Shown here: positions 4,522-50,566 of the stretch, piece by piece | Numbering within the stretch: position 1 is the stretch's first letter | How the letters are laid out: each line of letters begins with the position of its first letter | Origin: Terriglobia bacterium | Lineage (GTDB): Bacteria > Acidobacteriota > Terriglobia > UBA7540 | DNA: 64,000 bases | Direction of reading: 5' to 3' | NCBI GenBank assembly: GCA_046706005.1 | Contig: JBJKPU010000132.1 | Coordinates: 1 to 64,000, forward strand | Made by a program: the position numbers and the translations under genes | The notes under the pieces: model-generated | The model's database searches: none | The model's input: the letters and a program-made list of their open reading frames with translations, nothing else | What the model was told of the DNA's origin: nothing

Positions 4522-4625
4522 GAAAACCAGCCTCCTGTTTTCGGACGATTGTAGTGCGACCTTCGCCGCACCCACATCATATAACGACGCGGCAATCAGG
4601 ACGGCGGTTTCGAAACAAATTTGAG

Positions 4626-4653
4626 TTGCAATCCGAATCCGGATTGGTATAAT
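4626..4653 (+). promoter_or_regulatory. sigma70-like promoter TTGCAA-N16-TATAAT with a 10-bp palindrome AATCCGGATT in the spacer; predicted leaderless transcript for the AIM24 gene
   Basis: TTGCAA at 4626-4631 and TATAAT at 4648-4653. The ATG at 4662 is 8 nt downstream of the -10, with no SD. The perfect palindrome is at 4636-4645. Confidence 0.45.
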
Positions 4654-4661
4654 CGCGCGCC

Positions 4662-15815: not shown

Positions 15816-15914
15816 ATTTAGCTCCGGTGCTTCTTCGAATTTGTTGCAAAATGATTCCTCCGGCCGCGCGCGTATACGCGAGGCTCAGGAATGAAATAAT
15901 GGAAGGCGGAAATC

Positions 15915-17459
15915 ATGAAGAGAAACTGGAAATCCAAAATCTCTCTGTTGCTGGCGATTCTGTCGATCGCCATTGCCGCGCCGCAGCTTGCGGCGCAACG
16001 GCGCGGTGCGCCTCCGCAGCCGGTGGACTGGTTTACGGGAAAACCGCGCGTGGTGATCATCAGCGACATTGGTAATGAGCCCGATGACCAGATGTCCTTC
16101 GTTCGCATGCTCGTTTACTCCAACGAATTCGATATCGAAGCGATGATTGCCGCGACGTCCACGTGGCAGAAGAACGCCACGCATCCGGAGACGATGCACA
16201 AGCTGATCCGTGCTTATGGCGAGGTGCGGCCGAACCTGCTGCTGAACGCCAAGGGCTGGCCGACCGAGGAGTATCTTGACCGGCGCGTCTTCGCCGGGCA
16301 GCCCGCTTATGGATTGGCCTCGACAGGCAAGGGCAAGAGTTCGCCCGGCTCAAAAGCTCTGGAAGCCGCCATCGAGCGCAACGATCCGCGTCCTCTTTGG
16401 ATCTGCATTTGGGGCGGCGCCAACTCGCTGGCTCAGGCGCTGATGGATCTGCGCGCCGGAAAGAGCCCGCAGGAGATGAAGGAACTGGTGGCGCGGCTGT
16501 GCGTCTATTCCATTTCCGACCAGGACGATGCCGGCCCGTGGATTCGGCGCGAGTTTCCAGGACTTTTTTACATCGTCACGCCCAGCCGGCCCAACAGCGA
16601 CAACTCTTACTTCGCCACCTGGACCGGAATCAGCGGCGACCGTTATTATCGCAATTGCGAGGGCGCCGACACCAGCGTTGTCACCAACCAATGGCTTGAC
16701 CGGAATATTCGTTCCAAGGGCCCGCTCGGCAAACTCTATCCAAAATTCATGTTCATCATGGAGGGCGACACGCCCAGCTTTCTGGGGCTGATTGACAACG
16801 GCCTCAACGCCTACCGCCGTCCCGACTGGGGAGGTTGGGGTGGCCGCTACGTCTATCTGCAGCCTTACGGAGAGACGCATCCCATCTGGACGCAGGGCGG
16901 AGATGAATTCGGCCGCTACACCACCTCGCAGGACACCGTCATCGGCGCGGATGGCCGCAAGCATGTTTCCGACCAGGCCAGCATCTGGCGCTGGCGCGAC
17001 GCTTTCCAGAACGATTTTGCCGCGCGCATGGATTGGACCGTGAAGGATTTCGCGCACGCGAATCACAATCCGCTCGTGGTTGTAAACGGCCGGCCGGGCA
17101 CCGCACCCATTCAGATGGAAGCCACGGCCGGGCAAATCGTGAAGTTGACGGCAGCGGGAACCAGCGACCCGGACCGCGGACAGAAGCTCAGCTATCATTG
17201 GTTCGTTTATCCGGAAGCGGGGCTTGACGGAACCCATGGCGCTGATGTGACACTCGCGGGCGCTGATCAGCCGGTTGTAAGCGTGGACGCGAAATCGGCC
17301 TGCCGCCCGTTGTGGCTGCCGAGCCTGGTGCCGTGCCGGGGTTCCGGCGTTGTGCACATCATCCTGGCGGTTACGGACAACGGCTCGCCGCGCCTCACGT
17401 CATACCGGCGCGTGATTCTGAAGGTGAACATCGCGGCGAGTGTCTTTAAGACAAATTAA
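15915..17459 (+). CDS. secreted DUF1593 (nucleoside-hydrolase-like) domain protein with C-terminal Ig-like region
   Basis: Signal peptide. DUF1593 hallmarks: VVIISDIGNEPDDQMSFVRMLVYSNEFDIEAMIAATS and WICIWGGANSLAQAL. Confidence 0.6.
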   Translation: MKRNWKSKISLLLAILSIAIAAPQLAAQRRGAPPQPVDWFTGKPRVVIISDIGNEPDDQMSFVRMLVYSNEFDIEAMIAATSTWQKNATHPETMHKLIRAYGEVRPNLLLNAKGWPTEEYLDRRVFAGQPAYGLASTGKGKSSPGSKALEAAIERNDPRPLWICIWGGANSLAQALMDLRAGKSPQEMKELVARLCVYSISDQDDAGPWIRREFPGLFYIVTPSRPNSDNSYFATWTGISGDRYYRNCEGADTSVVTNQWLDRNIRSKGPLGKLYPKFMFIMEGDTPSFLGLIDNGLNAYRRPDWGGWGGRYVYLQPYGETHPIWTQGGDEFGRYTTSQDTVIGADGRKHVSDQASIWRWRDAFQNDFAARMDWTVKDFAHANHNPLVVVNGRPGTAPIQMEATAGQIVKLTAAGTSDPDRGQKLSYHWFVYPEAGLDGTHGADVTLAGADQPVVSVDAKSACRPLWLPSLVPCRGSGVVHIILAVTDNGSPRLTSYRRVILKVNIAASVFKTN

Positions 17460-36179: not shown

Positions 36180-36218
36180 GTTGCGTGCCCATGGCGAGCT
36201 GGCATTAAGGGGCCCTGC

Positions 36219-36247
36219 TTGACCTGCCTCGCTAATTAGTGTATATA
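36219..36247 (+). promoter_or_regulatory. brnTA promoter TTGACC-N17-TATATA; predicted leaderless brnT mRNA
   Basis: TTGACC at 36219-24 and TATATA at 36242-47. The ATG at 36255 is 8 nt after the -10. Confidence 0.4.
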
Positions 36248-36254
36248 CATAAAT

Positions 36255-36545
36255 ATGTTCTCCTGGGACGCTGCGAAGGCCCTGAGGAACTTGGAAAAGC
36301 ATGGCGTCCCTTTCGAGGAGGCAGCGACGGTTTTTGTCGATGCGGAGGCGCTGGATTGGGAGGACCTGGAGCACGGTGATCTGGAGCGCCGGTGGAAGCG
36401 TTTGGGGCGCGCCGCCCGTGGCCGCGTGCTCCTGGTTGTCTATACGTTAAGGAAGGTGAAGAATGGCACGGAAACGATACGCATTATCAGCGCGCGGCAA
36501 GCGAGCCGTAAAGAGCGCAAGGCTTATGCCGGACAGCAGGATTGA
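36255..36545 (+). CDS. brnT: BrnT-like (DUF497) type II toxin
   Basis: MFSWDAAKALRNLEKHGVPFEEAATVF matches the BrnT family start. Confidence 0.8.
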   Translation: MFSWDAAKALRNLEKHGVPFEEAATVFVDAEALDWEDLEHGDLERRWKRLGRAARGRVLLVVYTLRKVKNGTETIRIISARQASRKERKAYAGQQD

Positions 36546-36756
36546 TTTTTCCGACATTCCGGAAACGACGGACGCGGAACTCAAGCGCGCCCGGCGCGTG
36601 GGCCGGCCGAAAACCGGAGAGGCCAAGCAGTTGATTGCCATTCGAATCGCTCCGCGGTTGCTCGCCGAGTTGCGCCGCCAGGCGGCTAAACAATCAAAAC
36701 CCTACCAGACCCTGATTCACGAATTGCTGGAAAAGGCCGCCCGCCGCGCGGCATGA
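36527..36756 (+). CDS. brnA: BrnA-like antitoxin
   Basis: Overlaps the brnT 3' end. Typical BrnA motifs (IDFSDIPE...RxGRPK...KxxIxIRLxxxxLxxxK). Confidence 0.75.
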
Positions 36757-36767
36757 CGGTCGCACTT

Positions 36768-36861
36768 GTAGCGCAGGGTTTGTGCATTTCAAACTCTGCG
36801 GTTCGTTCCGGGATGACGGGGAAAAGACCGCAGAGTTTTCAGGAAGGAAACTCTGCGCTAC
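36768..36861. repeat. structured repeat, copy 1 (GTAGCGCAG...CTGCGCTAC termini, two internal hairpins)
   Basis: Hairpin CGCAGGGTTTG-TGCATTT-CAAACTCTGCG, then GCAGAGTTTTC-AGGAAG-GAAACTCTGC. Terminal inverted repeats. Starts 12 nt after the brnA stop. Confidence 0.7.
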
Positions 36862-36871
36862 ACGCTAAGTG

Positions 36872-37231
36872 TCAGCCGGATTTCACATCTTCGAACCCGC
36901 ACGAGGTCAGAAGGGCCCGGCGGACCTCGGACCATTTTGAATCAGGCAGAGTGCAAAGCGGCGATCCGATGCGATCGCGCCGGGCAAGAGATAAATGGTC
37001 GGAATTGAGAGCGCATACGACCGGCATTCCATCGTCCGGCGAAAGAGCCACCGCAGTCGCCAGGCCGCGGATGGTCCGTGTTACCGGGACTACGATGACC
37101 TCGTTGAGATGGTCCATGACTTCGTTGCGGGTCAGGATAAGGACTGGGCGGCGTTTATCGGGAAGCCGAAACGTGTACCAGCGAATCTCGCCACGCTTCA
37201 AGCGATCCCCTCCCAACCGCCGGAGTCCCAC
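36872..37231 (-). CDS. MazF/PemK-family toxin (endoribonuclease-type)
   Basis: LKRGEIRWYTFRLPDKRRPVLILTRNEV...VIVVPVT resembles the PemK/MazF fold. Confidence 0.7.
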   Translation of the reverse strand: MGLRRLGGDRLKRGEIRWYTFRLPDKRRPVLILTRNEVMDHLNEVIVVPVTRTIRGLATAVALSPDDGMPVVCALNSDHLSLARRDRIGSPLCTLPDSKWSEVRRALLTSCGFEDVKSG

Positions 37232-37407
37232 GCGAGAGGTTCGTCATCGCTTGAGAATTCTCCGTTTCGAGGAGGCAGGGCGCGGTAGGCATCGCTATCG
37301 GTCGCCGGAAGACGACTGGAGAGCAGCCGGAGCGGCCGGAGTTGCTCTTCGCGCGAAAGGTGATCGACCAGAAGTATAATCTCGTCTGCGCTCGGAGATT
37401 TTGGCAT
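37198..37407 (-). CDS. putative cognate antitoxin (about 70 aa), overlapping the mazF-like start
   Basis: MPKSPSADEIILLVDHLSREEQLRPLRLL... Start ATG at 37407. 34-nt overlap with the toxin ORF. No family assignment possible. Confidence 0.45.
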   Translation of the reverse strand: MPKSPSADEIILLVDHLSREEQLRPLRLLSSRLPATDSDAYRALPPRNGEFSSDDEPLAWDSGGWEGIA

Positions 37408-37455
37408 CGGAACGATTCTACCAGAAACCGGTTCGCTGGTTCTGATTTTCGAGGC

Positions 37456-37519
37456 GTAGCGCCCACCCCGCCATGCGGGGTGGGCAGGTGCCGACCCCGC
37501 CAAGCGGGATCGGCGCTAC
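37456..37519. repeat. short variant element with the same GTAGCGC...GCGCTAC termini, enclosing two GC-rich hairpins
   Basis: GCCCACCCCGC-cat-GCGGGGTGGGC and GCCGACCCCGC-caa-GCGGGATCGGC, bounded by GTAGCGC / GCGCTAC. Confidence 0.45.
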
Positions 37520-37542
37520 GGCCGGTTGACGTAACTACAGCA

Positions 37543-37552
37543 TGTAGCTACA
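37543..37552. promoter_or_regulatory. perfect 10-bp palindrome TGTAGCTACA in the promoter region of the antitoxin/mazF-like operon (candidate operator)
   Basis: Self-complementary. Lies upstream (minus-strand sense) of the antitoxin start at 37407. Confidence 0.3.
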
Positions 37553-37574
37553 TTGGGCGACGACAAATGAAGGG

Positions 37575-37666
37575 TGTAGCGCAGAGTTTGTGCATTTCAA
37601 ACTCTGCGGTTCGTTTCCGGGCACGGGAAAAAGCCGCAGAGTTTCCAGGAGCGAAACTCTACGCTA
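37575..37666. repeat. structured repeat, copy 2
   Basis: About 90% identical to copy 1. Same hairpins and termini (GTAGCGCAGAG...CTCTACGCTAC). Confidence 0.7.
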
Positions 37667-37680
37667 CCAGCTGGAAGCGC

Positions 37681-37920
37681 GTGGGCCGAACGCGCGAACG
37701 CCGGATTGATTTCTCCGACATCCCGGAAACGACGGACGTGGAGCTGAAGCGCGCCCGGCGCGTGGGCCGGCCGAAAACCGGAGAGGCCAAGCAACTGATC
37801 GCCATTCGAATCGCACCGCGATTGCTCGCCGAACTGCGCCGCCAGGCCGCCAGACAGTCGAAACCTTACCAGACCCTGATCCACGAAATGCTGGAAAAGG
37901 CCTTGCGCCGCGCGGCATGA
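37681..37920 (+). CDS. orphan second BrnA-like antitoxin copy (no adjacent brnT)
   Basis: The C-terminal 70 aa are near-identical to BrnA at 36527-36756. GTG start inferred. The table ORF 37342..37920 upstream part has no support. Confidence 0.5.
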   Translation: MGRTRERRIDFSDIPETTDVELKRARRVGRPKTGEAKQLIAIRIAPRLLAELRRQAARQSKPYQTLIHEMLEKALRRAA

Positions 37921-37956
37921 CGGTGTCGCCTTCTGACATCGAACTCTGTTTTTCTC

Positions 37957-38014
37957 TTGCCTCCTCCCTCATCCTAGTATATAACCAGTTATGTTCGAGG
38001 CAAGTGAACGCTAG
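37957..38014 (+). pseudogene. duplicated brnT promoter plus 7-codon brnT remnant (ATGTTCGAGGCAAGTGAACGCTAG = MFEASER*)
   Basis: CTTGCCTCCTCCCTCATCCTAGTATATAACCAGTTATGTTC resembles the brnT upstream sequence CTTGACCTGCCTCGCTAATTAGTGTATATACATAAATATGTTC. Confidence 0.4.
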
Positions 38015-38068
38015 TCCGTACGGCTGGCGGATGGATCGACGAGCACAGCAGCCGCGTTGGAGGGGGAT

Positions 38069-39193
38069 ATGCCCGACAATCCACAGCAGGGCCCGAGCGC
38101 GCCGCCCGCGAGAGGGGACACGCCTCGAAAGGCCAAGCGCCGCAAGCGACGGAGGCACGGCGCGTCCTCGGGCGCCCGCGCCGAAGGCGCAGGGGGTAGA
38201 TCGACCTTCGCGTTCCCGAAGCATGCTCTATCGGAGTGTCTAAGGATTCCGAAGGCCATCTTGGACCAGAACGCGGGGAGGCAGTGCCGAGACCGAGATG
38301 CGGCGAGGTTCGCGGGGCTCGGCTATACGGGGGAGGTGTCCACCGAGATCAGCTCAGCGCTGAAGTACGGGCTACTCGACCGCCCTGCGCCGGGGACTGT
38401 AAGGCCCACTGACCTAATCCGGAGGATTGTCAGGCCCCAGAAGCCGGACGATGTCACCGACGCCATGAGGGAGGCCGTGCTCCACGCTCCGTTGATCTCG
38501 GACGCTTACAAGCACTACCGGGGTGAGAACCTGCCCGACATTCCCTTTCTGGCTAACACGGCTCGGGACACGTTCAAGGTATCCCCGGAGAAAGTGGACG
38601 CCTTCGTCGGTGTGTTTATTAGAGCGCTTGGGGACGCAAAGCTTATCGAGGACGCCGGGGGGAAAAACCGCGTAGTGGACGTAACGCGGACTCAGGACGT
38701 CCAAGGGAGCAGCGCCTCCGCCGACGAGCACTTGAAGAAGGTCAGCAGGGGCATATCGGTGCAGTCCAGTGATACGTGCTTTGTGATGATGCCGTTCGCA
38801 GACCCTCTTGGTGGGTACTATCACACTATCTACGCGCCCGCGATAAAGAAGTCGGGGCTCACGCCCGTGCGTGCGGACACAGATATCTTTGGGACCGGTA
38901 AGATCATCGACCAGATCTGGACGGGTATCAACAAAGCGCGGGTTTTGGTGGCCGAGCTTACTGGGCGAAACCCGAACGTACTTTACGAACTAGGCCTCGC
39001 CCACGCCCTGCGGAAGCCCGTTGTGCTCGTGTCCTCGAACGAGCCTGACGTGCCATTCGACGTGCGACACGTTAGGGTTATCTACTACGACGTGAACGAT
39101 CCCTTTTGGGGGGACAAGCTCATAGCCAAGGTCGCTGAGAACATCGTTTCTGCACTGAAGAACCCGAAGGAGGCCATCCTCTTTAGTGACTGA
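38069..39193 (+). CDS. hypothetical protein with C-terminal nucleoside 2-deoxyribosyltransferase-like / SLOG-fold domain (catalytic Glu retained) and basic disordered N-terminus
   Basis: The C-terminal CFVMMPF...NPNVLYELGLAHALRKPVVLV...RVIYYD parallels the NDT/Rcl/MilB pattern (IYLAGPxF...DxGTxFELGxAxAxGKPV) with the nucleophile Glu in YELG. GGAGGGGG RBS before the ATG at 38069. Lys/Arg-rich N-terminal 45 aa. Confidence 0.6.
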   Translation: MPDNPQQGPSAPPARGDTPRKAKRRKRRRHGASSGARAEGAGGRSTFAFPKHALSECLRIPKAILDQNAGRQCRDRDAARFAGLGYTGEVSTEISSALKYGLLDRPAPGTVRPTDLIRRIVRPQKPDDVTDAMREAVLHAPLISDAYKHYRGENLPDIPFLANTARDTFKVSPEKVDAFVGVFIRALGDAKLIEDAGGKNRVVDVTRTQDVQGSSASADEHLKKVSRGISVQSSDTCFVMMPFADPLGGYYHTIYAPAIKKSGLTPVRADTDIFGTGKIIDQIWTGINKARVLVAELTGRNPNVLYELGLAHALRKPVVLVSSNEPDVPFDVRHVRVIYYDVNDPFWGDKLIAKVAENIVSALKNPKEAILFSD

Positions 39194-39240
39194 AACCGAC
39201 GCCGGCGGCTGGCTCAGCGGTTCCTGACGGCGAATTTGCA

Positions 39241-39265
39241 GGGGCAGGTCTGTAAACCTGCCCCT
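39241..39265 (+). terminator. GC-rich hairpin GGGGCAGGT-CTGTAA-ACCTGCCCC downstream of the NDT-like gene (no U-tract)
   Basis: Perfect 9-bp stem 48 nt after the stop codon. Confidence 0.3.
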
Positions 39266-39287
39266 ACGCAAGTCCAAGCGGCGGGTT

Positions 39288-39381
39288 GTGGTGCAGAGCT
39301 TTGGGGTTTCAAACTCCGCGGTTTGTTCCGGGATGGCGGGGAAGAAGCGGCAGAGTTTCCAGGAGTGAAACTCCTAGCTAC
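39288..39381. repeat. structured repeat, copy 3 (diverged)
   Basis: GTGGTGCAGAGCTTTGGGGTTTCAAACTCCGCGG...GCAGAGTTTCCAGGAGTGAAACTCCTAGCTAC. Same architecture with substitutions. Confidence 0.6.
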
Positions 39382-39630
39382 CTGCTGACCACGTTTGGAC
39401 AATTGAGGAGGTGCCTAGGTAGGCTGGCTTTTAGGCTGCAAGAAAGCCAAGAGGGGCTCTGACGCACAGAGCCCCTCTCAGACTAGAATATAATATGTTA
39501 GACTTACTTAGAATAGCTGAACAATAAGATGCACCGAAAATATACGCGGATAAGCCCTAGATGTCAAGTGTTTTCTTCCACTAGTCCAAGGTTCTTTCTC
39601 CAATCTCAAATAATCGGGTTTATTAGGCAT

Positions 39631-40416
39631 TCAACTGGCGAGTGCTACTTTTACCTTTTCATTGTTCCTATTTAACCTTAGGGCCGTCGTTGGATATTGT
39701 GAACTGGGATTAGGGACAGAGTGTGTCTCTAATATCCCCAACTCAAGGCCTTCATTGATGCACTGTTGGCTGAAGCCATACTTATCGCGGACCAGTTTTA
39801 AGCCCACAAACGGGAGTCTTGATTCTAAAGCTGCGAGCTTCTTAATCGTGGTTGGCCAATCAGTGTTCCCGCTTTCGCCAACAGACGCGACGATGGATTT
39901 CGGCGAACCAGCAGGTTCGATGCCCAACAGCTTCTCGATGAAAATCACATTGTCCTGCCCAACAGCATCAGTGAGTTCTTTCGCGGTAGCTGATTCAAGG
40001 GCACAAATTTTGACTGTTTTGCCCTGGCTGCGCAACCTGTGAATCAAGTCGAGACAACCCCTGTCGCCGGTCACAAGGACAAACTCGTTTATGTCTTTCC
40101 TCTCATACAAGGTCTCCTGTGCATCAAGCATAAGAGTAGCATCGGCAGTTTCCTTCCATACGGATTCGGTTCCTTTTACCGTCTTTTTGGAAAGTGTGAA
40201 GGCTGGCTTAACTCCGGCCTTCATAAAGGCAGCTTGCGCCCCATGGAATTCGAGCCTCTCCCAATCGGCGTACGCATTTTTTATAAGCAGATTCCCATCC
40301 TTCTCAACTTCTTTAAGAATAAGACCGAAAAGGTGTGGTACTTGGGGCTTGAAATTATACTGGTTGATCAGCCCCCAATAGACATTCTCATAATCGATGA
40401 AAATCGCAACTTCCAT
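39631..40416 (-). CDS. NYN-domain (PIN-like RNase fold) protein with C-terminal OST-HTH/LOTUS domain, on an AT-rich insertion
   Basis: MEVAIFIDYENVYW...FVLVTGDRGCLDLIHRL is typical of NYN/LabA. The C-terminus is LOTUS-like. Local GC is far below the flanks. Confidence 0.8.
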   Translation of the reverse strand: MEVAIFIDYENVYWGLINQYNFKPQVPHLFGLILKEVEKDGNLLIKNAYADWERLEFHGAQAAFMKAGVKPAFTLSKKTVKGTESVWKETADATLMLDAQETLYERKDINEFVLVTGDRGCLDLIHRLRSQGKTVKICALESATAKELTDAVGQDNVIFIEKLLGIEPAGSPKSIVASVGESGNTDWPTTIKKLAALESRLPFVGLKLVRDKYGFSQQCINEGLELGILETHSVPNPSSQYPTTALRLNRNNEKVKVALAS

Positions 40417-40667
40417 GGCTTTTCCCCATTTCTGATGCCCGATACTAACGGGACAGCGCTTTATATGTCAAGCTGATTAAGTGCTAGCCAATCTACCATC
40501 TGCCCCTTTCAAAATGTACCACTAGCCTTGAGCGTATCAATTTGACTTTACCTACCGCTCGGTAGGACAATAGGCGCAAGCGGCCTCGACGCGCGGGGAC
40601 CGGCGATCGGACGACCCATAAGGTTGCTGAAAAACATTCTGGAGCCCGTTATTCGGAGCCTTCGCTC

Positions 40668-40795
40668 CGTCATTCCGAGCGAAGCGAGGAATCTGCTTTT
40701 CGCTCCGGGCGGGTTCCGCGAGCGCTTTTGCTCCACGGGTTGAAAGCCAAGCAGATTCCTCGGGCCGATAAAAACGATCGGCCCTCGGAATGACG
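40668..40795. repeat. MITE-like element with 12-bp perfect terminal inverted repeats CGTCATTCCGAG / CTCGGAATGACG, inside the leuA leader
   Basis: The left end CGTCATTCCGAGCGAAGCGAGGAATCTGC and right end GCAGATTCCTCGGGCCGATAAAAACGATCGGCCCTCGGAATGACG pair over about 23 bp. The motif resembles a repeat I recall as dispersed in Acidobacteria genomes. Confidence 0.5.
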
Positions 40796-40854
40796 TTCGA
40801 GCACCGTTTTTCTGCAACCGACTTGTGGCAGAATCAGGGGCGGGAGGAAAGCGA

Positions 40855-42450
40855 ATGCCAGACAAGCTTTTTGTATTCGACACCACGCTGCGCGACGGCG
40901 AGCAGTCGCCGGGCTGCAGCATGACGCTGGATGAGAAGCTGGAAATGGCGCGCCAGCTTGACCGCCTGGGCGTGGACATTCTGGAAGCGGGCTTTCCCAT
41001 TGCGTCGGAAGGCGATCATGACGCCGTGCGCGCCGTTTCGCAGGAAGTCCGACGGCCCATCATCGCGGCGCTGGCCCGAGCCAACGAGCTCGACATTGAC
41101 CGCGCCTGGAGCGCCTTGCGCGATGCTGCGCGGCCGCGCATTCACACTTTTCTCGCCACTTCTGATATTCACCTGAAATACAAGCTGCGCAAGACGCGCG
41201 AAGAAGTTCTGAAAATGATCAGCTCGGCCGTGGGCCACGCCAAATCGCTTTGCGAGGACGTTGAGTTTTCGCCCGAGGACGCCGGGCGCACGGACCGCGA
41301 TTATCTGGTTGAGTGCTGCCACGCCGCGGTGGAAGCGGGCGCGACTGTTTTGAATCTGCCGGATACGGTCGGCTACTGTCTTGCGCCGGAATATGAAGCG
41401 ATGTTCGCGGACGTCAAGGCTCGCGTGCCGGGCATGGACAAAGTCACGCTCAGCACGCACACGCACGACGATCTGGGGCTTGCCGTCTCCAATACTCTCG
41501 CCGGAATTCGCGGCGGGGCGCGGCAGATCGAATGCACCATCAACGGCATCGGCGAGCGGGCAGGGAACGCGGCGCTGGAAGAAATCGTGATGGCGGTTTA
41601 TGTGCGGCGCGAGGCGCTGGGCATCACGACCGACATTCGAACCGAGCAGCTTTACGCTTCCAGCCAGTTGCTGACGCGCCTGACCGGAGTGGCCGTGCAG
41701 CGCAACAAAGCCGTCGTGGGCCGCAACGCTTTTGCGCACGAGGCCGGCATCCATCAGGACGGCGTGCTGAAAAACGCCATCACTTATGAAATTATTTCGC
41801 CCAAGACGGTCGGCATGCCGTCGAATTCGATTGTGCTGGGCAAGCATTCCGGCGGGCACGCTCTGGCGAAGCGCTATGAAGAGCTCGGCTACCAGTTGAC
41901 CAAGCCGGAAGTGGATCGCGCCTACAAGCTGTTCAGCGAACTGGCCGACCGCAAAAAGAATATCTACGACGAGGATTTGATCGCCATCGTCAACGAGGGC
42001 TTTGACCACATTCCGGAAATGTTCACGCTGAAATCGTTCCAGAGCGTGGTTTCAACCGAAGGACGCTCGACGGCGACCATCGAGCTGCTGAAGGACGGCG
42101 AGACGTTTACCGATTCCGCCACGGCTGACGGCCCGTGCGATGCCGCCTTCCGCGTAATCGACCGCCTGACCGGCCAGCCGGGCACGGTTGTAGATTTCTC
42201 GGTCCATACGGTCGGGCCGGGCGTGGACGGCGTCGCGGAGGTTTACGTGAGAGGGCGATTCGAGGGGCGCGAGTTTTCCGGCAAGTCGTTGAGCCAGAAT
42301 GTGGTTGAGGCCGCGGCCCGAGCCTACCTGCAGGCCGCAAACAAGGCCGTCTATGAAATCAAAAAAGCTAATGAAAAAAGCGCTCAGGCGGCCGCCGTTT
42401 CCATCCATGACGATGAGCTCGTTGACCGTTATTTCCCCGGCGGATACTAG
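40855..42450 (+). CDS. leuA: 2-isopropylmalate synthase
   Basis: LFVFDTTLRDGEQSPG and HxH motifs. GGGAGGAAAG RBS. Confidence 0.9.
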   Translation: MPDKLFVFDTTLRDGEQSPGCSMTLDEKLEMARQLDRLGVDILEAGFPIASEGDHDAVRAVSQEVRRPIIAALARANELDIDRAWSALRDAARPRIHTFLATSDIHLKYKLRKTREEVLKMISSAVGHAKSLCEDVEFSPEDAGRTDRDYLVECCHAAVEAGATVLNLPDTVGYCLAPEYEAMFADVKARVPGMDKVTLSTHTHDDLGLAVSNTLAGIRGGARQIECTINGIGERAGNAALEEIVMAVYVRREALGITTDIRTEQLYASSQLLTRLTGVAVQRNKAVVGRNAFAHEAGIHQDGVLKNAITYEIISPKTVGMPSNSIVLGKHSGGHALAKRYEELGYQLTKPEVDRAYKLFSELADRKKNIYDEDLIAIVNEGFDHIPEMFTLKSFQSVVSTEGRSTATIELLKDGETFTDSATADGPCDAAFRVIDRLTGQPGTVVDFSVHTVGPGVDGVAEVYVRGRFEGREFSGKSLSQNVVEAAARAYLQAANKAVYEIKKANEKSAQAAAVSIHDDELVDRYFPGGY

Positions 42451-42668
42451 AAACTGGTCTTCGCGTGAGGCCTGTCCAAAGGCCCCTGAACAAACAGCCT
42501 GAGACCATGGTCAAAATAAATAACTTGTGTAATATCAGTTATTTAGTAAAATTTTTGACCTGCAAAATCCTTAAAAATAGCCCCCCCTTAATACAATTCT
42601 GCATGTCATATTAAACAAAGCCTTGCATCTTCCGACATTAGTCCTGTAAGATGCTGTTAACTAAAGAT

Positions 42669-43772
42669 ATGCGTGCTATCCATAAGATAGCTGTCTTACC
42701 GGGAGATGGGATCGGGCCGGAAGTAACTGCCGAAGCTGTTAAGGTTCTGAAAGCCGTCGAAGAAGTTATCGGGCAGTCATTCCGATTCCAGTCAGGGTTG
42801 GTTGGGGGGAGCGCGGTTGACGCGACGGCCGTTCCTTTGCCTTCAGAAACCATTGCTATCTGTAATCAGGCCAGTGCCATTTTATTCGGCGCGGTGGGCG
42901 GTCCCAAATGGGATTCCAAGCGTCCTGAAGCCCGCCCAGAGCAGGGAATCCTGCAATTGCGTCAGCGGATGGGACTTTACATTAACCTTCGGCCCGCCGT
43001 TGTTCACGACTCACTGGTTGCCCATTCGGCCTTGCGCCCGGAGCGCGTTCGCGGAACGGATCTGGTGATTGTGCGCGAGTTGATGGGCGGGATTTATTTT
43101 GGCAATCCGCGCGGCATCTTTGCCAAGAACGGCGAACGCTTCGGCATCAATACGGAAATCTACAAAGAGCATGAAATTGAGCGTGTAGCTCACCGGGCCT
43201 TTCAGCTTGCCCAAATCCGGCGACAAAAGCTCACCTCGGTGGACAAGGCCAACGTGCTGGAGACGTCCCGCTTGTGGCGCGAAGTGGTCAACCGGCTGGC
43301 GCGGGCCTATCCCGACGTCGAGGTCGAGCACCTTTATGTGGACAATTGCGCCATGCGCCTGATCGACCGGCCAACCAGCTTCGATGTGATTCTGACCAGC
43401 AATATGTTTGGTGACATCCTGAGCGATGAGGCAGCCATGCTTACCGGATCTATCGGACTGCTGCCCTCGGCCAGCCTGGGCGAGCGTGCGGCGCTCTATG
43501 AACCCGTTCACGGTTCAGCCCCTGACATCGCCGGCCGCAACCGCGCCAACCCGCTGGCGGCGATTGCGTCGGCGGCATTGATGCTTCGATATTCCTTCCG
43601 AATGGAAAGAGCCGCTTTGGCCATTGAAACCGCCATCGAGAAGATTCTCAAGCGCGGCGTCCGGACGGCCGAACTTCCCGGCAAAAAGCGCCCACTTTCG
43701 ACATCCCGCGTGGGGGACCTGGTCGCCGCCGAAACCAAGAAGATTCTGAAGTCCTCGAAATTTAAAGCTTAA
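42669..43772 (+). CDS. leuB: 3-isopropylmalate dehydrogenase
   Basis: KIAVLPGDGIGPEV and the isocitrate/isopropylmalate DH signature NLFGDILSDEAAMLTGSIGL. The start could be 42651. Confidence 0.9.
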   Translation: MRAIHKIAVLPGDGIGPEVTAEAVKVLKAVEEVIGQSFRFQSGLVGGSAVDATAVPLPSETIAICNQASAILFGAVGGPKWDSKRPEARPEQGILQLRQRMGLYINLRPAVVHDSLVAHSALRPERVRGTDLVIVRELMGGIYFGNPRGIFAKNGERFGINTEIYKEHEIERVAHRAFQLAQIRRQKLTSVDKANVLETSRLWREVVNRLARAYPDVEVEHLYVDNCAMRLIDRPTSFDVILTSNMFGDILSDEAAMLTGSIGLLPSASLGERAALYEPVHGSAPDIAGRNRANPLAAIASAALMLRYSFRMERAALAIETAIEKILKRGVRTAELPGKKRPLSTSRVGDLVAAETKKILKSSKFKA

Positions 43773-43875
43773 ATCAACAGTGCAATCCAGTGCGGCTTCT
43801 GCCCGAGCGTCCTGCCGGCACGAGTTTGTCTCGTCGCGGTTCTTACAGTAGAATCCTCGGCAGAAGGAGAGGGAT

Positions 43876-45648
43876 TTGCGCCTACGCATTCTATCGCTGG
43901 CACTAATCTCCTGCGTTGTGATGGCAATGGATTCAAATTCCAGCAAAGCGGCTAGAGATCCCAAGAATCAAGGCGGACGGCTCGTTCGGGGCGCTGACCT
44001 TGTTCTGCTTGGCGGCAAGATCTGGACCGGAGAGCCGATGGCGAGGCCCGGTGTGAAGGACCCCACAGCGACGTTCGCTCAGGCGGTCGCGATTCTTGAT
44101 GGCCGCATTGCGGCCGTAGGAACGGACGAGCAAATTGAGCCCTACGTTTCCTCCAATACGCAGGTCATCAACTTGCATGGCCGCTTTGCCATGCCGGGAT
44201 TCATTGACTCCCACGTGCACTTCATGGACGGCAGTTTCAAGTTGCTGGAAGTAAACTTGAAACATGTCCACAGCAAACAGGAATTTGTTGACCAGATCGC
44301 GGCCAAGGCAAGGCTGCTTCCGGCGGGACGCTGGCTGCTGGGCGGCGACTGGGACGAAGAAGCATGGCCGGATGGCCAGCTTCCTACGCGCTGGATGATT
44401 GACGAGGTCACCAAAGGCATTCCGGTTTACATTGATCGCTACGACGGCCACGCGGGTCTGGCGAATTCGCTGGCGCTCAAAATGGCTGGAATTACGAAAG
44501 AAACTCCTGCTCCGACAGGCGGCGTCATAGTGCGCGATCCGGCGACGGGCGAGCCCACGGGCGTGCTGAAAGACGCGGCGCAGGATCTGATTACTCGAGG
44601 GATTCCCAACCCTACCGATGCCGAAGCCGAGCAGGCTTTGCGGGCTGGCCTTGCCGAGGCGCGGCGCGTTGGAGTGACCTCGGTTGAGAACATGAACTTG
44701 GGCACCAACACGCCTTATGGAACTTTCCAAGGTGAGCTGCTGCTGCTCAGGCGCGCCAAGCATGAAGGCTGGCTGACCTGCCGCTTTTACGAAATCATTC
44801 CCATCCTCGATTGGGAGCGGCTGCGGGATATCGGCATTTCCCGCAAAATGGGCGACGAATTCATCAAGCTGTGCGCGGTCAAAGCTTTTGCTGACGGCTC
44901 GGTCGGTTCCCGCACGGCATGGATGTTTAAGCCTTACATCGACGACCCGAACAATTTCGGGCTGGCGACGGCTCTGATGGATCCCCCAACAAAAATGGAA
45001 GCGCTAGCTCGCGAAGCCAATGCGGCCGGGATTCAGATTTGCATTCATGCCATCGGAACGCGCGCCATCTCCGAAGTGCTCGACATCTATCAATCCGTCG
45101 GAGGGTCCGATCCTGCGTCGAACCGTTTTCGCATCGAGCACGCCCAGCACCTGCGGCCGGAGGATTTTGCAAGGTTCGCGCGGCTCGGAGTGATCGCATC
45201 GATGCAACCCTATCATGCAATTGATGACGGCCGCTGGGTGGAGAAACGCATCGGACCTAAACGCGCCCGCTGGAGTTACGCCTGGCGGTCCATGCTGGAT
45301 GCCGGCGTGCCGCTCGCTTTCGGAACTGATTGGCCCGTGGCGCCCCTCAACCCGCTTTTGAGCATTTATGCTGCTGTGACGCGTGAGACGCTTGACGGGA
45401 AAAATCCCCACGGCTGGTTTCCGGAAGAGAAGATAACGCTCAATGAGGCGCTTCGCGCGTACACGGCCGGCAGCGCATACGCTGCATTCGAGGAAAATGA
45501 AAAGGGAACCATCGCGCACGGAAAGCTGGGCGATATCGTGGTGCTTTCAGATGACCTTTTTTCGATCGCTCCGGAGAAAATCAAAGATGTATATGTTGAC
45601 CTGACAATCCTCGGGGGGAAGGTCGTCTATGATACACAAAATCCATAG
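43876..45648 (+). CDS. secreted metal-dependent amidohydrolase (amidohydrolase-3 family)
   Basis: HxH (GFIDSHVHF) at the N-terminus of the barrel and a C-terminal HAIGD motif. Signal peptide. Confidence 0.75.
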   Translation: MRLRILSLALISCVVMAMDSNSSKAARDPKNQGGRLVRGADLVLLGGKIWTGEPMARPGVKDPTATFAQAVAILDGRIAAVGTDEQIEPYVSSNTQVINLHGRFAMPGFIDSHVHFMDGSFKLLEVNLKHVHSKQEFVDQIAAKARLLPAGRWLLGGDWDEEAWPDGQLPTRWMIDEVTKGIPVYIDRYDGHAGLANSLALKMAGITKETPAPTGGVIVRDPATGEPTGVLKDAAQDLITRGIPNPTDAEAEQALRAGLAEARRVGVTSVENMNLGTNTPYGTFQGELLLLRRAKHEGWLTCRFYEIIPILDWERLRDIGISRKMGDEFIKLCAVKAFADGSVGSRTAWMFKPYIDDPNNFGLATALMDPPTKMEALAREANAAGIQICIHAIGTRAISEVLDIYQSVGGSDPASNRFRIEHAQHLRPEDFARFARLGVIASMQPYHAIDDGRWVEKRIGPKRARWSYAWRSMLDAGVPLAFGTDWPVAPLNPLLSIYAAVTRETLDGKNPHGWFPEEKITLNEALRAYTAGSAYAAFEENEKGTIAHGKLGDIVVLSDDLFSIAPEKIKDVYVDLTILGGKVVYDTQNP

Positions 45649-47114: not shown

Positions 47115-48062
47115 ATGTCGAAAAGAATGCTTTCGTTGACCCTGGCGATCTTCCTCGCAGCGATTGCCGGCCAAGCCTTTGGCCAGAACCTGGCGCAGGA
47201 CGCGCTTTCGAGCTTTCCTGCCGATACGGTTCACATTGAATTCTCCTCGCCTCAAAGGCTGCGCTCGCTTGCTTCCTACAACGATTTGCGACACCGCTTT
47301 GTCGGGCAGAAGCTCGTGGATCTGGAAACGACTTTGGGGAAACTTGGCATTCAGGAAAGCCAGATTGACGATCTTGTTCTGGGATGGAGGCCTTCCGGCA
47401 GCACGATGGAGCTGTTCGGTCTGGCGTCCGGCCACTTCGATATCGCGGGGATCAAAAAGAGCGCTCAGCAGAGGGGCATAGCTCCGGAAAACCTGGGTGG
47501 GTCGCCGGCCTACTGCGTAGGCGCGGGAGTCTCGACGGAGTGCGCCTTGATTTTCGACTCCACGCACGGCGCCTTTGGCACCCTGGAGACGCTCAGCGAT
47601 ATCATGGATGTTCGCCAGTCGGCGAAACCCAGCGTGGGTTCCAACTCCGGTTTTTCCCAGTTGGTGGATGAGGCGCCCAAGCAAGACCCGATCTGGGGCG
47701 TGGCGGAAGGGCCGGGGGTCGCGGACTGGTTCAACGGGTGGATTTCGAACGCCAGCTCGGTCCAACTCGACTGGACCAAAGTCTTCAGCAACGTGGATTC
47801 GCTCACTTATGGGATCGAAACCGGTGACAACGTGAAGATCGCCTTGCGCCTTAACTGCAATTCTCCCGACTCCGCAACGAGTTTGCGGCAGGTTCTTGAA
47901 GGCCTGAGGCTTGCCCAACAGCTTGCCTGGCAGCATCAGAGCCCGAATCAGCCCGATCCATTCGAAGGAACCGAGATCGAGCTGAACGGAAGCGAGGTCA
48001 CCCTCAAGATGGCGGCTACCTTCGGTCAGCTGGGGAAATTGCAATCAATCGGGGCGCAGTAG
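47115..48062 (+). CDS. hypothetical secreted protein
   Basis: Signal peptide MSKRMLSLTLAIFLAAIAGQAFGQ. Starts 7 nt after the previous stop. Confidence 0.45.
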   Translation: MSKRMLSLTLAIFLAAIAGQAFGQNLAQDALSSFPADTVHIEFSSPQRLRSLASYNDLRHRFVGQKLVDLETTLGKLGIQESQIDDLVLGWRPSGSTMELFGLASGHFDIAGIKKSAQQRGIAPENLGGSPAYCVGAGVSTECALIFDSTHGAFGTLETLSDIMDVRQSAKPSVGSNSGFSQLVDEAPKQDPIWGVAEGPGVADWFNGWISNASSVQLDWTKVFSNVDSLTYGIETGDNVKIALRLNCNSPDSATSLRQVLEGLRLAQQLAWQHQSPNQPDPFEGTEIELNGSEVTLKMAATFGQLGKLQSIGAQ

Positions 48063-48087
48063 CCAGCGGGCGAAGGAAGCTGAAAGC

Positions 48088-49722
48088 TCATGAGCTTTCA
48101 AGCGTAATTCGCTGATCGGGCGCGATGGCAAGAGTGCTTTCCTTGCGGTGGGGAAGTCTCAGCGTAATGGATTGGGCCTGCGATGCAGTTCCCACGATGG
48201 TCTGAGGGACACCGCGTAAATCGGTTTCGAGCCGCGCCTCTCCCGTGATTTCACCGCATTTTCTCCCGCTGATTGACAGCTCGGACCGGACTTCGGGATC
48301 ATCCTGCAAAGAGCCTTTTCGATCCTGTCTGGTCACCAGCTCGGCTTCTCCGGCCGAGGTCTGCAGAATAAATCGAGAAGTCGCAGCACCCTGGGGCAGG
48401 CGGCAATTCCAATCGAGCCTGTTTCTTTCTTTCCTGATTCCATACAGCCGGGAGACAAACTCAATCAGGAGCAGCATGGCCGGTGAATATCCGGTGCCTG
48501 TCGAAAGTGCGCCTGTCCACGGATTGGCCTGCTGCTGGAATTCGCCACCGCCGGTGAGCGCCTGAACCCACTGGCTCATCAGGTGAGTCAGGTCCGCCGG
48601 CTTTCCGTAGTGCTCCATCCATCGCGGCGCGCGCAATGCCGTCAACGTCTGCGAAGCTCCTCCCCAGGAATTTCGGGGCAAACTGTGATCGAAGAGCGGA
48701 TCGTCGGCGGCTATGGAAGGGAATGGATAAGGAGTCCAGAATTCACGGGGATTGTGAACATGCTTGCGGTAGATCGCCTCAAAAAGTTTGTCATCCACAA
48801 CATGCTCGCCTAGAACTCGGAGAAGCGCCACGCTGCGAACCTTAACGAAACGGTTCTCCGTATCGCGGTCGTAAAAACAGAGGTCGCCGGAGTCGAAGCA
48901 CCACTTCATGATGGCGGAACGAATCGCATCCGCCTTTTCCATCCACCGTGCGGCTTCAGCGGGCTTTCCGAGGATTGTGGCCATCCCTGCCAGCGCCACT
49001 CGGCCGCCGTAGACTGTGGCTGAGAGGTCAGGCGCTAACCGCGGCATTCCCGGGACATGAGGGCATTGCCGGGCGTCACCTTGCGGACATGCCCAGGGAA
49101 TGCCCTTGAAGCGCGGGCTATTGTCCTGGCCGGTGTCGTATCCGCAAAAGACTTCGCAGAGCCCGGTGCCGCGTGTGTTGCGATACCGAACCAGCCAATC
49201 GTCCCAGGCTGCGCAGGAGCGATAGGCTTGGGTCAGGAATTGCTCATCCTGCGTGAGGGCGAATAATTCAAGGGCCGTAGCGGCTATGGGAACGACCATC
49301 TGAATTTGGCTGCTACCTACCCAGTTGAAGCGAACGTAGCAGGGTAAATATCCATCCGACCGCTGCAATTGGAAGAAGATGTTGTGCCCCGCGGCTCCAA
49401 CCTCGCGGTTCAGGGGAGCATAAAGCAGGGCTTCCTGTGGACCATCCTCCAGCCAGATCCCGCCGTAAAGATTGCCTTCAATCAGCACGGACTGGTCAAA
49501 TCGATGGACTCTGGTGATATTCTTTTTGAGTCCTGCCAAGGCGGCGTTGTAGCGCGCGTGCAGAGCGCTGGCGTCGGTGGAGAAGGAAAAGGCTTGGCTT
49601 TCGGCGCTGCCGGCAGGTGCAGGTTGCGACTGGTCGCCAGAAGGGAATGATGCTTTAGCTCCGGCGAGTTCCAAAGCCCCACAGGCCAGCATTGTTTTGA
49701 TGAGGTTTCGTCGGTTGACCAC
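48088..49722 (-). CDS. Tat-exported six-hairpin glycoside-hydrolase-like protein (GH63/trehalase-like fold)
   Basis: RRNLIK Tat-like signal. (alpha/alpha)6 glycosidase-like composition. No exact family assignment. Confidence 0.55.
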   Translation of the reverse strand: MVNRRNLIKTMLACGALELAGAKASFPSGDQSQPAPAGSAESQAFSFSTDASALHARYNAALAGLKKNITRVHRFDQSVLIEGNLYGGIWLEDGPQEALLYAPLNREVGAAGHNIFFQLQRSDGYLPCYVRFNWVGSSQIQMVVPIAATALELFALTQDEQFLTQAYRSCAAWDDWLVRYRNTRGTGLCEVFCGYDTGQDNSPRFKGIPWACPQGDARQCPHVPGMPRLAPDLSATVYGGRVALAGMATILGKPAEAARWMEKADAIRSAIMKWCFDSGDLCFYDRDTENRFVKVRSVALLRVLGEHVVDDKLFEAIYRKHVHNPREFWTPYPFPSIAADDPLFDHSLPRNSWGGASQTLTALRAPRWMEHYGKPADLTHLMSQWVQALTGGGEFQQQANPWTGALSTGTGYSPAMLLLIEFVSRLYGIRKERNRLDWNCRLPQGAATSRFILQTSAGEAELVTRQDRKGSLQDDPEVRSELSISGRKCGEITGEARLETDLRGVPQTIVGTASQAQSITLRLPHRKESTLAIAPDQRITLESS

Positions 49723-49852
49723 GTAGAAACGGCGCCTGCTTCAGCGAGGCAAGGCCTCCTGGAATGGAGTTCTATACGTACAAAAGCCACCGGACATCCG
49801 GCCGGGGATGGGAAACATGGGTCAGGCAGTGTGGCGCGCAGCGAGCGACTAA

Positions 49853-50566
49853 TCAGCTGGCGGTGCGAATGACCAGAGAAGTCTGAAGTCGGAGTCGGCA
49901 CGGGGTCTGCGGAGGCAGGTTGACTTCACTCCCGCGTCCCCAGAAGAGTTCGTAGCCCACAAGGGCTGCGCCGGTCGCGGGAACCAGTCCCGCCATCGCT
50001 GTGGTGCTCAGGCCCAGTGCTTTTGCAGTAGCCAAGCCGCCAACGGAGACTGCGCCGGCCAGGAAATCCCTCCAGGAAAGATGGCGCTGACCTTCAACAT
50101 GGCCTTCAGAATCGAGCTTGATGTGCAACTTCTTCTGATTATCAAACTGGCTCAGGACGGCGGACACGGGTCCTTCTTCTCCGCTGGGAAGCATAATCTG
50201 ATCAAAGCTGAAAGCCAGTTCACCCGCCCGGTGAAAACGCCTCGCCTGCCGGATGACTGTGATGCGACCGTTGATGTAGGTTCCCGCCGGAAGAGCCATC
50301 TGGCCGTCGATATAAACGGGCGACGTCAATTGCGCGAGGACCGGATCATCGAGGTGGTTAATTTGAGTCTGGACGCCGGAGAGAAGCCGCACCCGAAACT
50401 CAGTTTCGGCGGGGATGGTTAAAGTCTGGGAGATGCCGTCTTCGAGCGTTGGCTTGGCGCTCTCTGAGAATCGCCTTGCAAGATGAATGGGCGAACCTGT
50501 CTCAGCCGGAAACGCCGGCATCGCAGCGAAAACCACGGCCAGAACAATCATTCCCGCTCTTCTCAT
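49853..50566 (-). CDS. hypothetical secreted protein
   Basis: Signal peptide MRRAGMIVLAVVFAAMPAFPA. No domain recognised. Confidence 0.4.
   Translation of the reverse strand: MRRAGMIVLAVVFAAMPAFPAETGSPIHLARRFSESAKPTLEDGISQTLTIPAETEFRVRLLSGVQTQINHLDDPVLAQLTSPVYIDGQMALPAGTYINGRITVIRQARRFHRAGELAFSFDQIMLPSGEEGPVSAVLSQFDNQKKLHIKLDSEGHVEGQRHLSWRDFLAGAVSVGGLATAKALGLSTTAMAGLVPATGAALVGYELFWGRGSEVNLPPQTPCRLRLQTSLVIRTAS

Follow-up and report, generated by a model that had tools for sequence, protein, structure and literature searches.

In a 64,000-nucleotide (nt) stretch of DNA from a Terriglobia bacterium (contig JBJKPU010000132.1 of GenBank assembly GCA_046706005.1; hereafter the window), the gene for an S9 peptidase and leuA are separated by a block of about 4.4 kb that carries two toxin-antitoxin (TA) modules, decayed copies of one of them, a gene for a 374-aa NDT-like protein, a low-GC segment with a NYN nuclease gene, and a family of palindromic repeats. 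An earlier note, made from the sequence alone, had described this block as an accessory island assembled by repeat-mediated rearrangement rather than by a classical mobile element. We find that the block is a real accessory islet with TA and defence-type genes, located at a variable junction and flanked by S9 peptidase and leuA as described, and that the proposed manner of its assembly is not supported as stated, the repeats being themselves of a mobile kind and a single rearrangement breakpoint only abutting one of them.

The accessory status of the block follows from the nearest relative that we found, locus L082, whose S9 peptidase is 72% identical (the protein search gave the source protein and this one relative). 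The 218-kb contig of L082 keeps the gene order of the window for more than 20 kb (window positions ~24.3-51.6 kb), from an anti-sigma factor (zf-HC2) gene to past a cold-shock-domain gene, sharing the genes for the anti-sigma factor, a TPR protein, RNase III, signal peptidase, AsmA, a Na/H exchanger, the S9 peptidase, LeuA, LeuB, an amidohydrolase, bactofilin, and others beyond. In L082 the S9 gene runs straight to leuA, which starts 155 nt after the S9 stop codon with no insert between them. The nucleotide alignment of the two loci ends at window position 36169 and restarts at 40542-40585, a leuA promoter region on the forward strand (TTGACT-18-GACAAT by promoter scan) that is 84% identical to L082 12162-12205. 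This placed the lineage-specific insert at about 36180-40541, between the S9 stop codon (36179) and the conserved leuA promoter, which the earlier note had counted as part of the island and which lies outside the insert. In S9 orthologues at 63-64% identity the Na/H exchanger gene is still found upstream and the genes downstream are unrelated, indicating that the 3' side of the S9 gene is a recurrent breakpoint. A wider scan for S9 peptidases with one genome per species gave 80 loci, all at 60% identity or less, with neither leuA nor island genes near any of them, and was uninformative for synteny; an exact look-up of LeuA from its shorter start gave no match.

The first module is a BrnT/BrnA pair on the forward strand, identified by Pfam matches to both components in agreement with the earlier note. 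A sigma-70-like promoter read from the sequence (TTGACC-17-TATATA, 36219-36247, forward strand) precedes brnT (36255-36545), which encodes a 96-aa type II RNase toxin covering the full PF04365 model (88.6 bits against a cutoff of 34.5, E = 3.4e-25) and was also called as a gene on an independent contig, L083. Directly 3' of it, in the same orientation and overlapping it by 20 nt, lies the first copy of brnA (36526-36756), which encodes a ribbon-helix-helix (RHH) antitoxin (PF14384, 32 bits against a cutoff of 26.1, E = 1.6e-7); its start is taken from the independent gene call in L083, the longest open reading frame (ORF) beginning at 36463.

Remnants of further brnTA units lie downstream, and both of those proposed by the earlier note, a second brnA without its toxin and a duplicated brnT promoter with a short stub of the gene, were recovered. 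The orphan brnA (37675-37920, forward strand) is 86% identical to the first copy, with the identity extending over a duplicated segment of 250 nt (37675-37924 against 36511-36760); the ORF at 37567-37920 matches PF14384 at E = 3.4e-6. This copy has lost both its brnT partner and its own start codon. The sole in-frame ATG available to it (37567) reads through one of the repeats described below (REPIN copy 2), and its use would add about 36 REPIN-encoded N-terminal residues. The stub (37977-38014, forward strand) consists of a -10 box, ATG TTC, five unrelated codons and a stop. Its motif, GTATATA-N6-TATGTTC, occurs at only two sites in the 64 kb, at 36241 (36241-36260) and at 37977, matching at 14 of 14 positions with the same spacing, where none are expected from shuffled sequences; a full 96-nt alignment of the stub with intact brnT reaches only ~45% identity. 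The succession of an orphan brnA and a brnT promoter and start codon suggests formerly tandem brnTA units that have since eroded.

Convergent with the first brnA is a 119-aa MazF/PemK-like toxin ORF on the reverse strand (36872-37231; PF02452, 46.1 bits against a cutoff of 23.1, E = 6.4e-12), which has tblastn matches to annotated PemK/MazF toxins on plasmids. Overlapping the start of the toxin gene is a second reverse-strand ORF (37198-37410, open to 37503) encoding 70 aa from its ATG, of which residues 28-61, in the C-terminal region, show weak pairwise similarity (E = 0.002) to an RHH antitoxin preceding a MazF homologue in a metagenome locus, L195. By position, size and overlap, this ORF fits a putative antitoxin of the MazF-like toxin outside the recognised families. 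The convergent mazF-like toxin and overlapping upstream ORF of the earlier note are therefore borne out, with the antitoxin identity put forward on position and size and without a family match. A forward-strand promoter-like site found by consensus scan only (TTGACG-17-TACATT, 37526-37554) lies just before REPIN copy 2 and the orphan brnA. It is overlapped by an imperfect palindrome, GTAACTACAGCATGTAGCTAC (37528-37552), which is situated between a 64-nt repeat doublet and REPIN copy 2 and may serve the mazF-module antitoxin or BrnA as an operator.

The longest gene of the block (38069-39193, forward strand) encodes a stand-alone 374-aa protein in which a disordered basic tail is followed by two helical domains resembling winged helices and, at the C-terminus, by a domain of the NDT/DNPH1/TIR-like N-glycosidase fold. 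The match to PF05014 scores 22.3 bits, below the cutoff of 28.8; some close homologues carry a precomputed PF05014 label. In a profile alignment the glutamate of a YELG motif aligns with the catalytic nucleophile of Rcl/DNPH1, and Foldseek comparison of the structural model with NDT and DNPH1 (TM-score 0.6-0.72) confirmed an NDT flavodoxin-like fold with the glutamate after the central strand. The NDT half of the label "NDT/SLOG-like" given by the earlier note thus stands despite the sub-cutoff Pfam score, and "SLOG-like" is looser than the evidence. PADLOC gave a weak, domain-level match to TIR effectors (E = 3.3e-7), one of two such weak matches in the block, where it recognised no defence system; NCBIfam gave no match for any island protein.

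Homologues of this protein number more than 3000, at ~375 aa, with the best 120 being 63-80% identical, and those with a named source are from Acidobacteriota (Acidobacteriia, Candidatus Acidiferrum, Pyrinomonadaceae). When they are aligned, the basic tail varies, ~155 residues form a strongly conserved module, and the C-terminal domain is conserved, the glutamate of YELG being invariant. The three homologue contexts that we examined have stand-alone genes in unrelated neighbourhoods. One homologue lies between HEPN_AbiU2 and SLFN/AlbA_2 genes plus an SNF2-DUF1156 pair, and another adjoins DUF4062 and TIR genes. An exhaustive search with the N-terminal module alone returned 556 clusters, whose distant members have a CAP12/Pycsar-type TIR domain (PF10137) in the position of the NDT domain. 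In one homologue of the N-terminal module (P0408), the module is preceded by a basic region of the histone H1-like HC2 type (PF07382), in parallel with the K/R-rich disordered tail of the window protein, which points to nucleic-acid binding. Our tentative assignment, somewhat short of an even bet, is that the 374-aa protein would be a nucleic-acid-binding N-glycosidase (an NADase or nucleotide hydrolase) with a role in conflict systems.

The AT-rich insertion of the earlier note was verified by measurement: a segment of 1152 bp (39390-40541) has a GC content of 0.463, compared to a mean of 0.591 (standard deviation 0.026) for equal-sized pieces of the window, placing it about 5 standard deviations below the mean and lowest of all such pieces. 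The remaining 3.2 kb of the island have a host-like GC content of 0.60. The segment carries a reverse-strand gene (39631-40416) for a 261-aa protein with a LabA-like NYN nuclease domain (PF01936, 71.2 bits against a cutoff of 24.2, E = 1.7e-19) followed by a C-terminal winged-helix domain. A promoter-like site (40471-40442) and a terminator-like hairpin (39481-39447), both found by scan on the reverse strand, also lie inside the segment. The AlphaFold2 model (pLDDT 84) matches PDB 2qip and the NYN domain of MARF1 in Foldseek (E = 1e-8 and 3e-6). The domain at residues 187-260 of the model has the winged-helix topology alpha-beta-alpha-alpha-beta-beta-alpha, which is compatible with LOTUS and non-specific, and the C-terminal 99 aa have no match in Pfam, OST-HTH/LOTUS included, even at E <= 10. 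Of the proposed NYN-LOTUS gene, then, profile and fold confirm the NYN part, while the LOTUS part is reduced to a predicted winged-helix topology. The family comprises 61 proteins, mostly on short contigs, and the two with source names come from metagenome-assembled genomes (MAGs) of Acidobacteria. One homologue (in L093) stands by itself among metabolic genes and likewise occupies a GC trough; another adjoins ResIII/SNF2, DUF1016 and SMC-like genes. A second, short GC dip in the window (0.42-0.47) lies between leuA and leuB (42300-42750).

A sharp GC step and repeats within a metagenome-derived contig could also arise as an artefact of assembly or binning, where a chimeric MAG contig joins unrelated DNA at the repeats. 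Two Logan short-read contigs from run SRR31309757 match the window at 100% identity and bear on this directly. L083 links the S9 gene to brnT and the first brnA, ending at window position ~36612, and L081 begins at 37764 and links the orphan brnA, the NDT-like gene, REPIN copy 3, the NYN gene and the leuA leader, crossing the GC step on both sides, so that the step is not an assembly chimera. The independent contigs cover the insert except for 36613-37763, the stretch of the mazF-like module. Each of these short-read contigs breaks off within one of the two brnA copies, which might be taken as a sign of misassembly, but such breaks are also what a genuine duplication at 86% identity is expected to cause. 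We consider an artefact very improbable.

The repeats of the block fit a published class. Repetitive extragenic palindromic (REP) sequences tagged with GTAG, their doublets (REPINs), and the associated RAYT (Y1) transposases have been described by Bertels & Rainey, 2011 (PMC3116915) and Di Nocera et al., 2013 (PMC3733652), and a GTAG REP is defined by an unpaired GTAG at the end of a palindrome with a stem of 5-13 bp and a loop of 2-20 nt (PMC3733652). The hairpin unit in the window is GTAG followed by CGCAGAGTTT, a loop of 7-9 nt, and AAACTCTGCG, with GTAG unpaired at one end. Three copies of ~100 nt each hold two such units as an inverted pair, in the layout GTAG-CGCAGAGTTT-loop-AAACTCTGCGG, a short spacer, and CCGCAGAGTTT-loop-AAACTCTGCG-CTAC. 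Copy 1 (36766-36867, with GTAGCGC...GCGCTAC ends at 36768-36861) lies between the convergent brnA and mazF-like genes, and copy 2 (37575-37673) abuts the truncated second brnTA unit, the duplicated segment of which begins at 37675. Both are predicted to fold into long hairpins with z-scores of about -6 to -7 (-52.6 kcal/mol, z -7.4 for copy 1; -51.3 kcal/mol, z -6.2 for copy 2). Copy 3 (39286-39387), the most diverged, lies between the NDT-like gene and the low-GC segment and folds weakly on the forward strand (z -1.5). The fourth element (37456-37519), a REP doublet 64 nt long with two hairpins (-56.7/-61.9 kcal/mol, z about -6 to -7), represents a second sequence type. It shares with the others only the GTAGCGC/GCGCTAC ends and had no copy in 216 fetched loci. 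The earlier note had counted four copies of one terminal-inverted-repeat element; three of these are the same element and the fourth is a relative in its ends only. Rfam gave no match for the repeats or the island at either gathering or relaxed thresholds. Given the agreement of tag, stem-loop sizes and inverted doublets with the published definition, we assign the window repeats to the REPINs.

Related DNA ties these repeats to transposases. A scan of metagenomes with the bare hairpin as the pattern, leaving out GTAG, found the same hairpin in at least 120 contigs from soil, peat and sediment, compared to a chance expectation that we roughly guess, uncomputed, at a few tens. GTAG or CTAC flanks exactly one side of the hairpin at 85 of 132 metagenome sites, and for 31 of the 87 GTAG-tagged REPs an inverted partner with a CTAC end is present, with a main size class of 87-96 nt, like the copies in the window. 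RAYT-like ORFs or fragments are found in 8 of the 120 REP-selected loci listed, including three full ORFs above the Pfam Y1_Tnp cutoff. In L109, a 173-aa Y1_Tnp ORF (PF01797, 32.2 bits against a cutoff of 23) lies exactly between inverted REP halves, a "REPtron". ORFs between REP pairs in L131 and L161 were also considered and are not transposases. The repeats of the block, GTAG-tagged REPINs of a family that flanks a Y1/RAYT transposase in a related contig, would accordingly be mobilised in trans by a RAYT encoded elsewhere.

Other observations were made on these metagenome loci. L098 carries at 1900-2560 a second type of Y1/RAYT-like gene with its own flanking inverted hairpins, GGCTGGCGCAGAGCGAGCTCAGCTCTGCG, in which the CGCAGAG core is common and CTGG replaces GTAG; a REPIN of the window's family lies ~100 nt downstream of this gene. 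This suggests that there are several related REP-RAYT lineages in these bacteria. Some REP-selected contigs also carry TA genes: BrnT homologues are found in L106, L113 (~1800-2400) and L200 (two, at ~3700-4000 and ~12500-12760), and L195 has a MazF homologue with its RHH antitoxin at 4591-5156. In L113, a REP lies ~130 nt from the TA gene.

The assembly proposed by the earlier note would have homologous recombination between inverted-repeat copies stitch the modules together, making the repeats a cause rather than passengers. The placement of the repeats is suggestive of this, since all four in the 64 kb lie inside the island at module borders, with the duplicated brnA segment bounded exactly on its left by REPIN copy 2 and, in the first brnA copy, followed 5 nt past its right end by REPIN copy 1, and REP-bearing metagenome loci also hold BrnT or MazF homologues. 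However, homology between the two brnA units does not restart past REPIN copy 1 (the alignment score is below the shuffle mean), which also ruled out this copy as a simple insertion. Conserved cassette ends were sought around the NDT and NYN genes and rejected, because homology to their homologues elsewhere stops at the coding sequences and no flanking sequence is common to them. The copies, 77-93% identical over ~100 nt, would be poor recombination substrates, and a trans-mobilised REPIN typically inserts in intergenic DNA (PMC3733652), which explains the border positions without recombination. We judge recombination between the repeats unlikely as the origin of the island. The sole rearrangement breakpoint at a REPIN is the truncation of the second brnT at 37674; the duplicated brnA segment begins right beside REPIN copy 2, so that brnT was lost from the second unit at the position of this copy. 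REPIN build-up in dispensable intergenic DNA explains the density of repeats at least as well as repeat-driven assembly, and we take as simplest a reading in which the region was dispensable first and REPINs, which insert into extragenic DNA and persist where they disrupt nothing essential, then accumulated there, occasionally marking deletions.

A classical mobile element, which the earlier note had set aside, was considered as well: the block could be what remains of an integrative element (a genomic island, prophage or transposon) that has lost its integrase or transposase. The island-like traits that we see are the absence of the block from L082 and the local deviation in GC content, the latter confined to one 1.15-kb segment of foreign base composition, and TA modules and defence-type genes are typical cargo of mobile islands. 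Against this origin, 3.2 of the 4.4 kb have host-like GC, and the modules, which differ in orientation, have their own promoters and include only one with foreign GC, look like independent acquisitions. As the earlier note had it, the scanned island ORFs show no domain of an integrase or transposase (short overlapping ORFs were outside the profile scan), and the island has no recombinase, no tRNA and no flanking direct repeats that we could find; viral contigs of IMG/VR hold no relatives of the NDT or NYN genes. These observations make an integrative remnant improbable.

We therefore favour, as the likely explanation, that selfish and defence-type genes built up into a small accessory islet at a rearrangement-prone junction 3' of the S9 gene and that this islet was then colonised by REPINs. 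From what is known of the families, its cargo would include an intact BrnT/BrnA module, in which an RNase toxin is restrained by an RHH antitoxin, and a MazF-type endoribonuclease with an unclassified upstream antitoxin. The orphan brnA and the brnT promoter and start stub would be decay products of further brnTA copies, and the low-GC cassette with its winged-helix-bearing NYN nuclease would be a recent acquisition. The winged-helix and NDT/TIR-like protein would most likely be a nucleic-acid-binding N-glycosidase acting on NAD+ or nucleotides, as a single-gene effector of the abortive-infection type. The REPINs would be non-autonomous, relying on a RAYT (Y1) transposase encoded elsewhere to copy them as single-stranded hairpins, and would have settled in dispensable intergenic gaps, where they may double as hairpin terminators; one of them would mark the deletion that took the second brnT.

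Several observations weigh against parts of this explanation. L082 is the single reasonably close relative, with genes only 68-81% identical at the nucleotide level, and with one relative at ~72% protein identity, gain in the window and loss in L082 are inseparable for the high-GC 3.2 kb. The two loci differ by further indels, so presence or absence of the block is unremarkable by itself. The putative MazF antitoxin ORF matches nothing in Pfam, NCBIfam or PADLOC even at E <= 10. For the REPINs, the 64-kb window has no RAYT-like tblastn match, and its three copies all lie inside the island with none elsewhere in the window. For the 374-aa protein, the C-terminal domain is modelled with only moderate confidence (pLDDT 60-88), PADLOC assigns the gene to no complete system, one homologue (L088) lies among housekeeping genes, and the search of IMG/VR, in which a phage origin was sought, came back without relatives of either this gene or the NYN gene.

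The comparison with L082 also turned up differences outside the block. The window has a ~1.8-kb segment (48043-49863) without an L082 counterpart, which holds a reverse-strand ORF of 544 aa (48088-49722), and L082 has between leuB and the amidohydrolase gene a gene for a 196-aa methyltransferase (15334-15924) that the window lacks (~43746-43904). The leuA leader is longer in the window, with ~245 nt (40586-40830) from the conserved promoter to the leuA start compared to ~38 nt in L082. The extra leader sequence holds a CGTC-tagged palindromic element at ~40668-40795, CGTCATTCCGAGCGAAGCGAGGAATCTGCTT ... AAGCAGATTCCTCG ... CTCGGAATGACG, which may be a second kind of inserted repeat, a CGTC-type REP; besides L081, whose DNA is that of the window, one further locus, L147, was seen to carry its left arm.

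The locus is of an ordinary class, its components belong to known kinds, and the island itself will not surprise a specialist. It shows the small-scale uptake and erosion of TA and defence genes at a synteny breakpoint in soil acidobacterial chromosomes, and REPINs settling in dispensable DNA. Two of its parts come from poorly studied families. The GTAG-REP/REPIN family with its RAYT-like transposase, common in metagenomes from soil, peat and sediment, may help in studying REPIN-RAYT evolution outside Proteobacteria. The 2013 survey found GTAG REPs in Proteobacteria, Cyanobacteria, Chloroflexi and the PVC group, and in Acidobacteria only Y1 transposases flanked by terminal inverted repeats ("TIRYTs") (PMC3733652). 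The family of more than 3000 winged-helix and NDT/TIR-like proteins is modular, with effectors swapped and neighbourhoods that look defence-like, which makes its members candidates that could be tested as a new single-gene defence system. A bolder reading, which we hold to be possible, though rather doubtful, is that the 374-aa protein stands for a very widespread and as yet uncharacterised system of immunity or abortive infection, made of a single gene and so far seen mainly in Acidobacteriota, in which the N-terminal module would sense a nucleic-acid cue and release the NAD+- or nucleotide-hydrolysing effector; it draws on the distant relatives of the N-terminal module that have a CAP12-type TIR domain in the same position. 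As a secondary point, the window repeats would represent a GTAG-REP/REPIN-RAYT system in Acidobacteria absent from the survey list.

Set beside known systems, the intact TA pair resembles type II BrnT/BrnA modules in its toxin-first operon with a 20-nt overlap, in having both domains above the Pfam cutoffs, and in the sigma-70-like promoter directly upstream; it differs in being accompanied by a decayed second unit (the 86%-identical orphan brnA) and perhaps a third (the brnT promoter and ATG stub). The second module is like MazEF/PemIK in that a PemK-fold toxin is preceded and overlapped by a small upstream ORF, but this ORF matches no MazE/AbrB, RHH or other Pfam antitoxin family and has the 64-nt REP doublet in its upstream region. 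The NYN protein shares with MARF1 and with LabA-like NYN proteins such as VPA0982 (PDB 2qip) the NYN nuclease fold (TM-score 0.75-0.81) followed by a small winged-helix domain, and departs from NYN-LOTUS proteins in lacking an OST-HTH/LOTUS profile match even at E = 10 and in belonging to a small family (61) with GC content below that of its hosts.

For the 374-aa protein, there is a parallel in architecture with type II retron effectors, which join an NDT domain to a DNA-binding domain, as in Retron-Eco1/Ec86 (PMC7736814). Both combine an N-glycosidase fold of the NDT superfamily, a catalytic glutamate and a predicted nucleic-acid-binding domain in one polypeptide, and homologues of the window protein have defence-like neighbourhoods. 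In the window protein the domain order is reversed, with the binding module N-terminal, and a basic disordered tail is added; no reverse transcriptase (RT) domain was found in the island ORFs, no retron match in Rfam, and no RT near the three homologues. DNPH1/Rcl, MilB, and the CAP12/Pycsar-type and ThsB-type TIR effectors are only 13-20% identical in sequence and are without its 200-residue N-terminal module. The repeats agree with GTAG REPs and REPINs in the unpaired 5' GTAG followed by a stem of 10-11 bp and a loop of 7-9 nt, in the pairing of two inverted REPs around a short spacer in an extragenic element of ~95-100 nt, and in the presence of the same REPs on both sides of a Y1_Tnp gene in related DNA. 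They differ in a spacer that is highly variable across the metagenome copies and in their core, CGCAGAGTTT, which defines a new sequence family.

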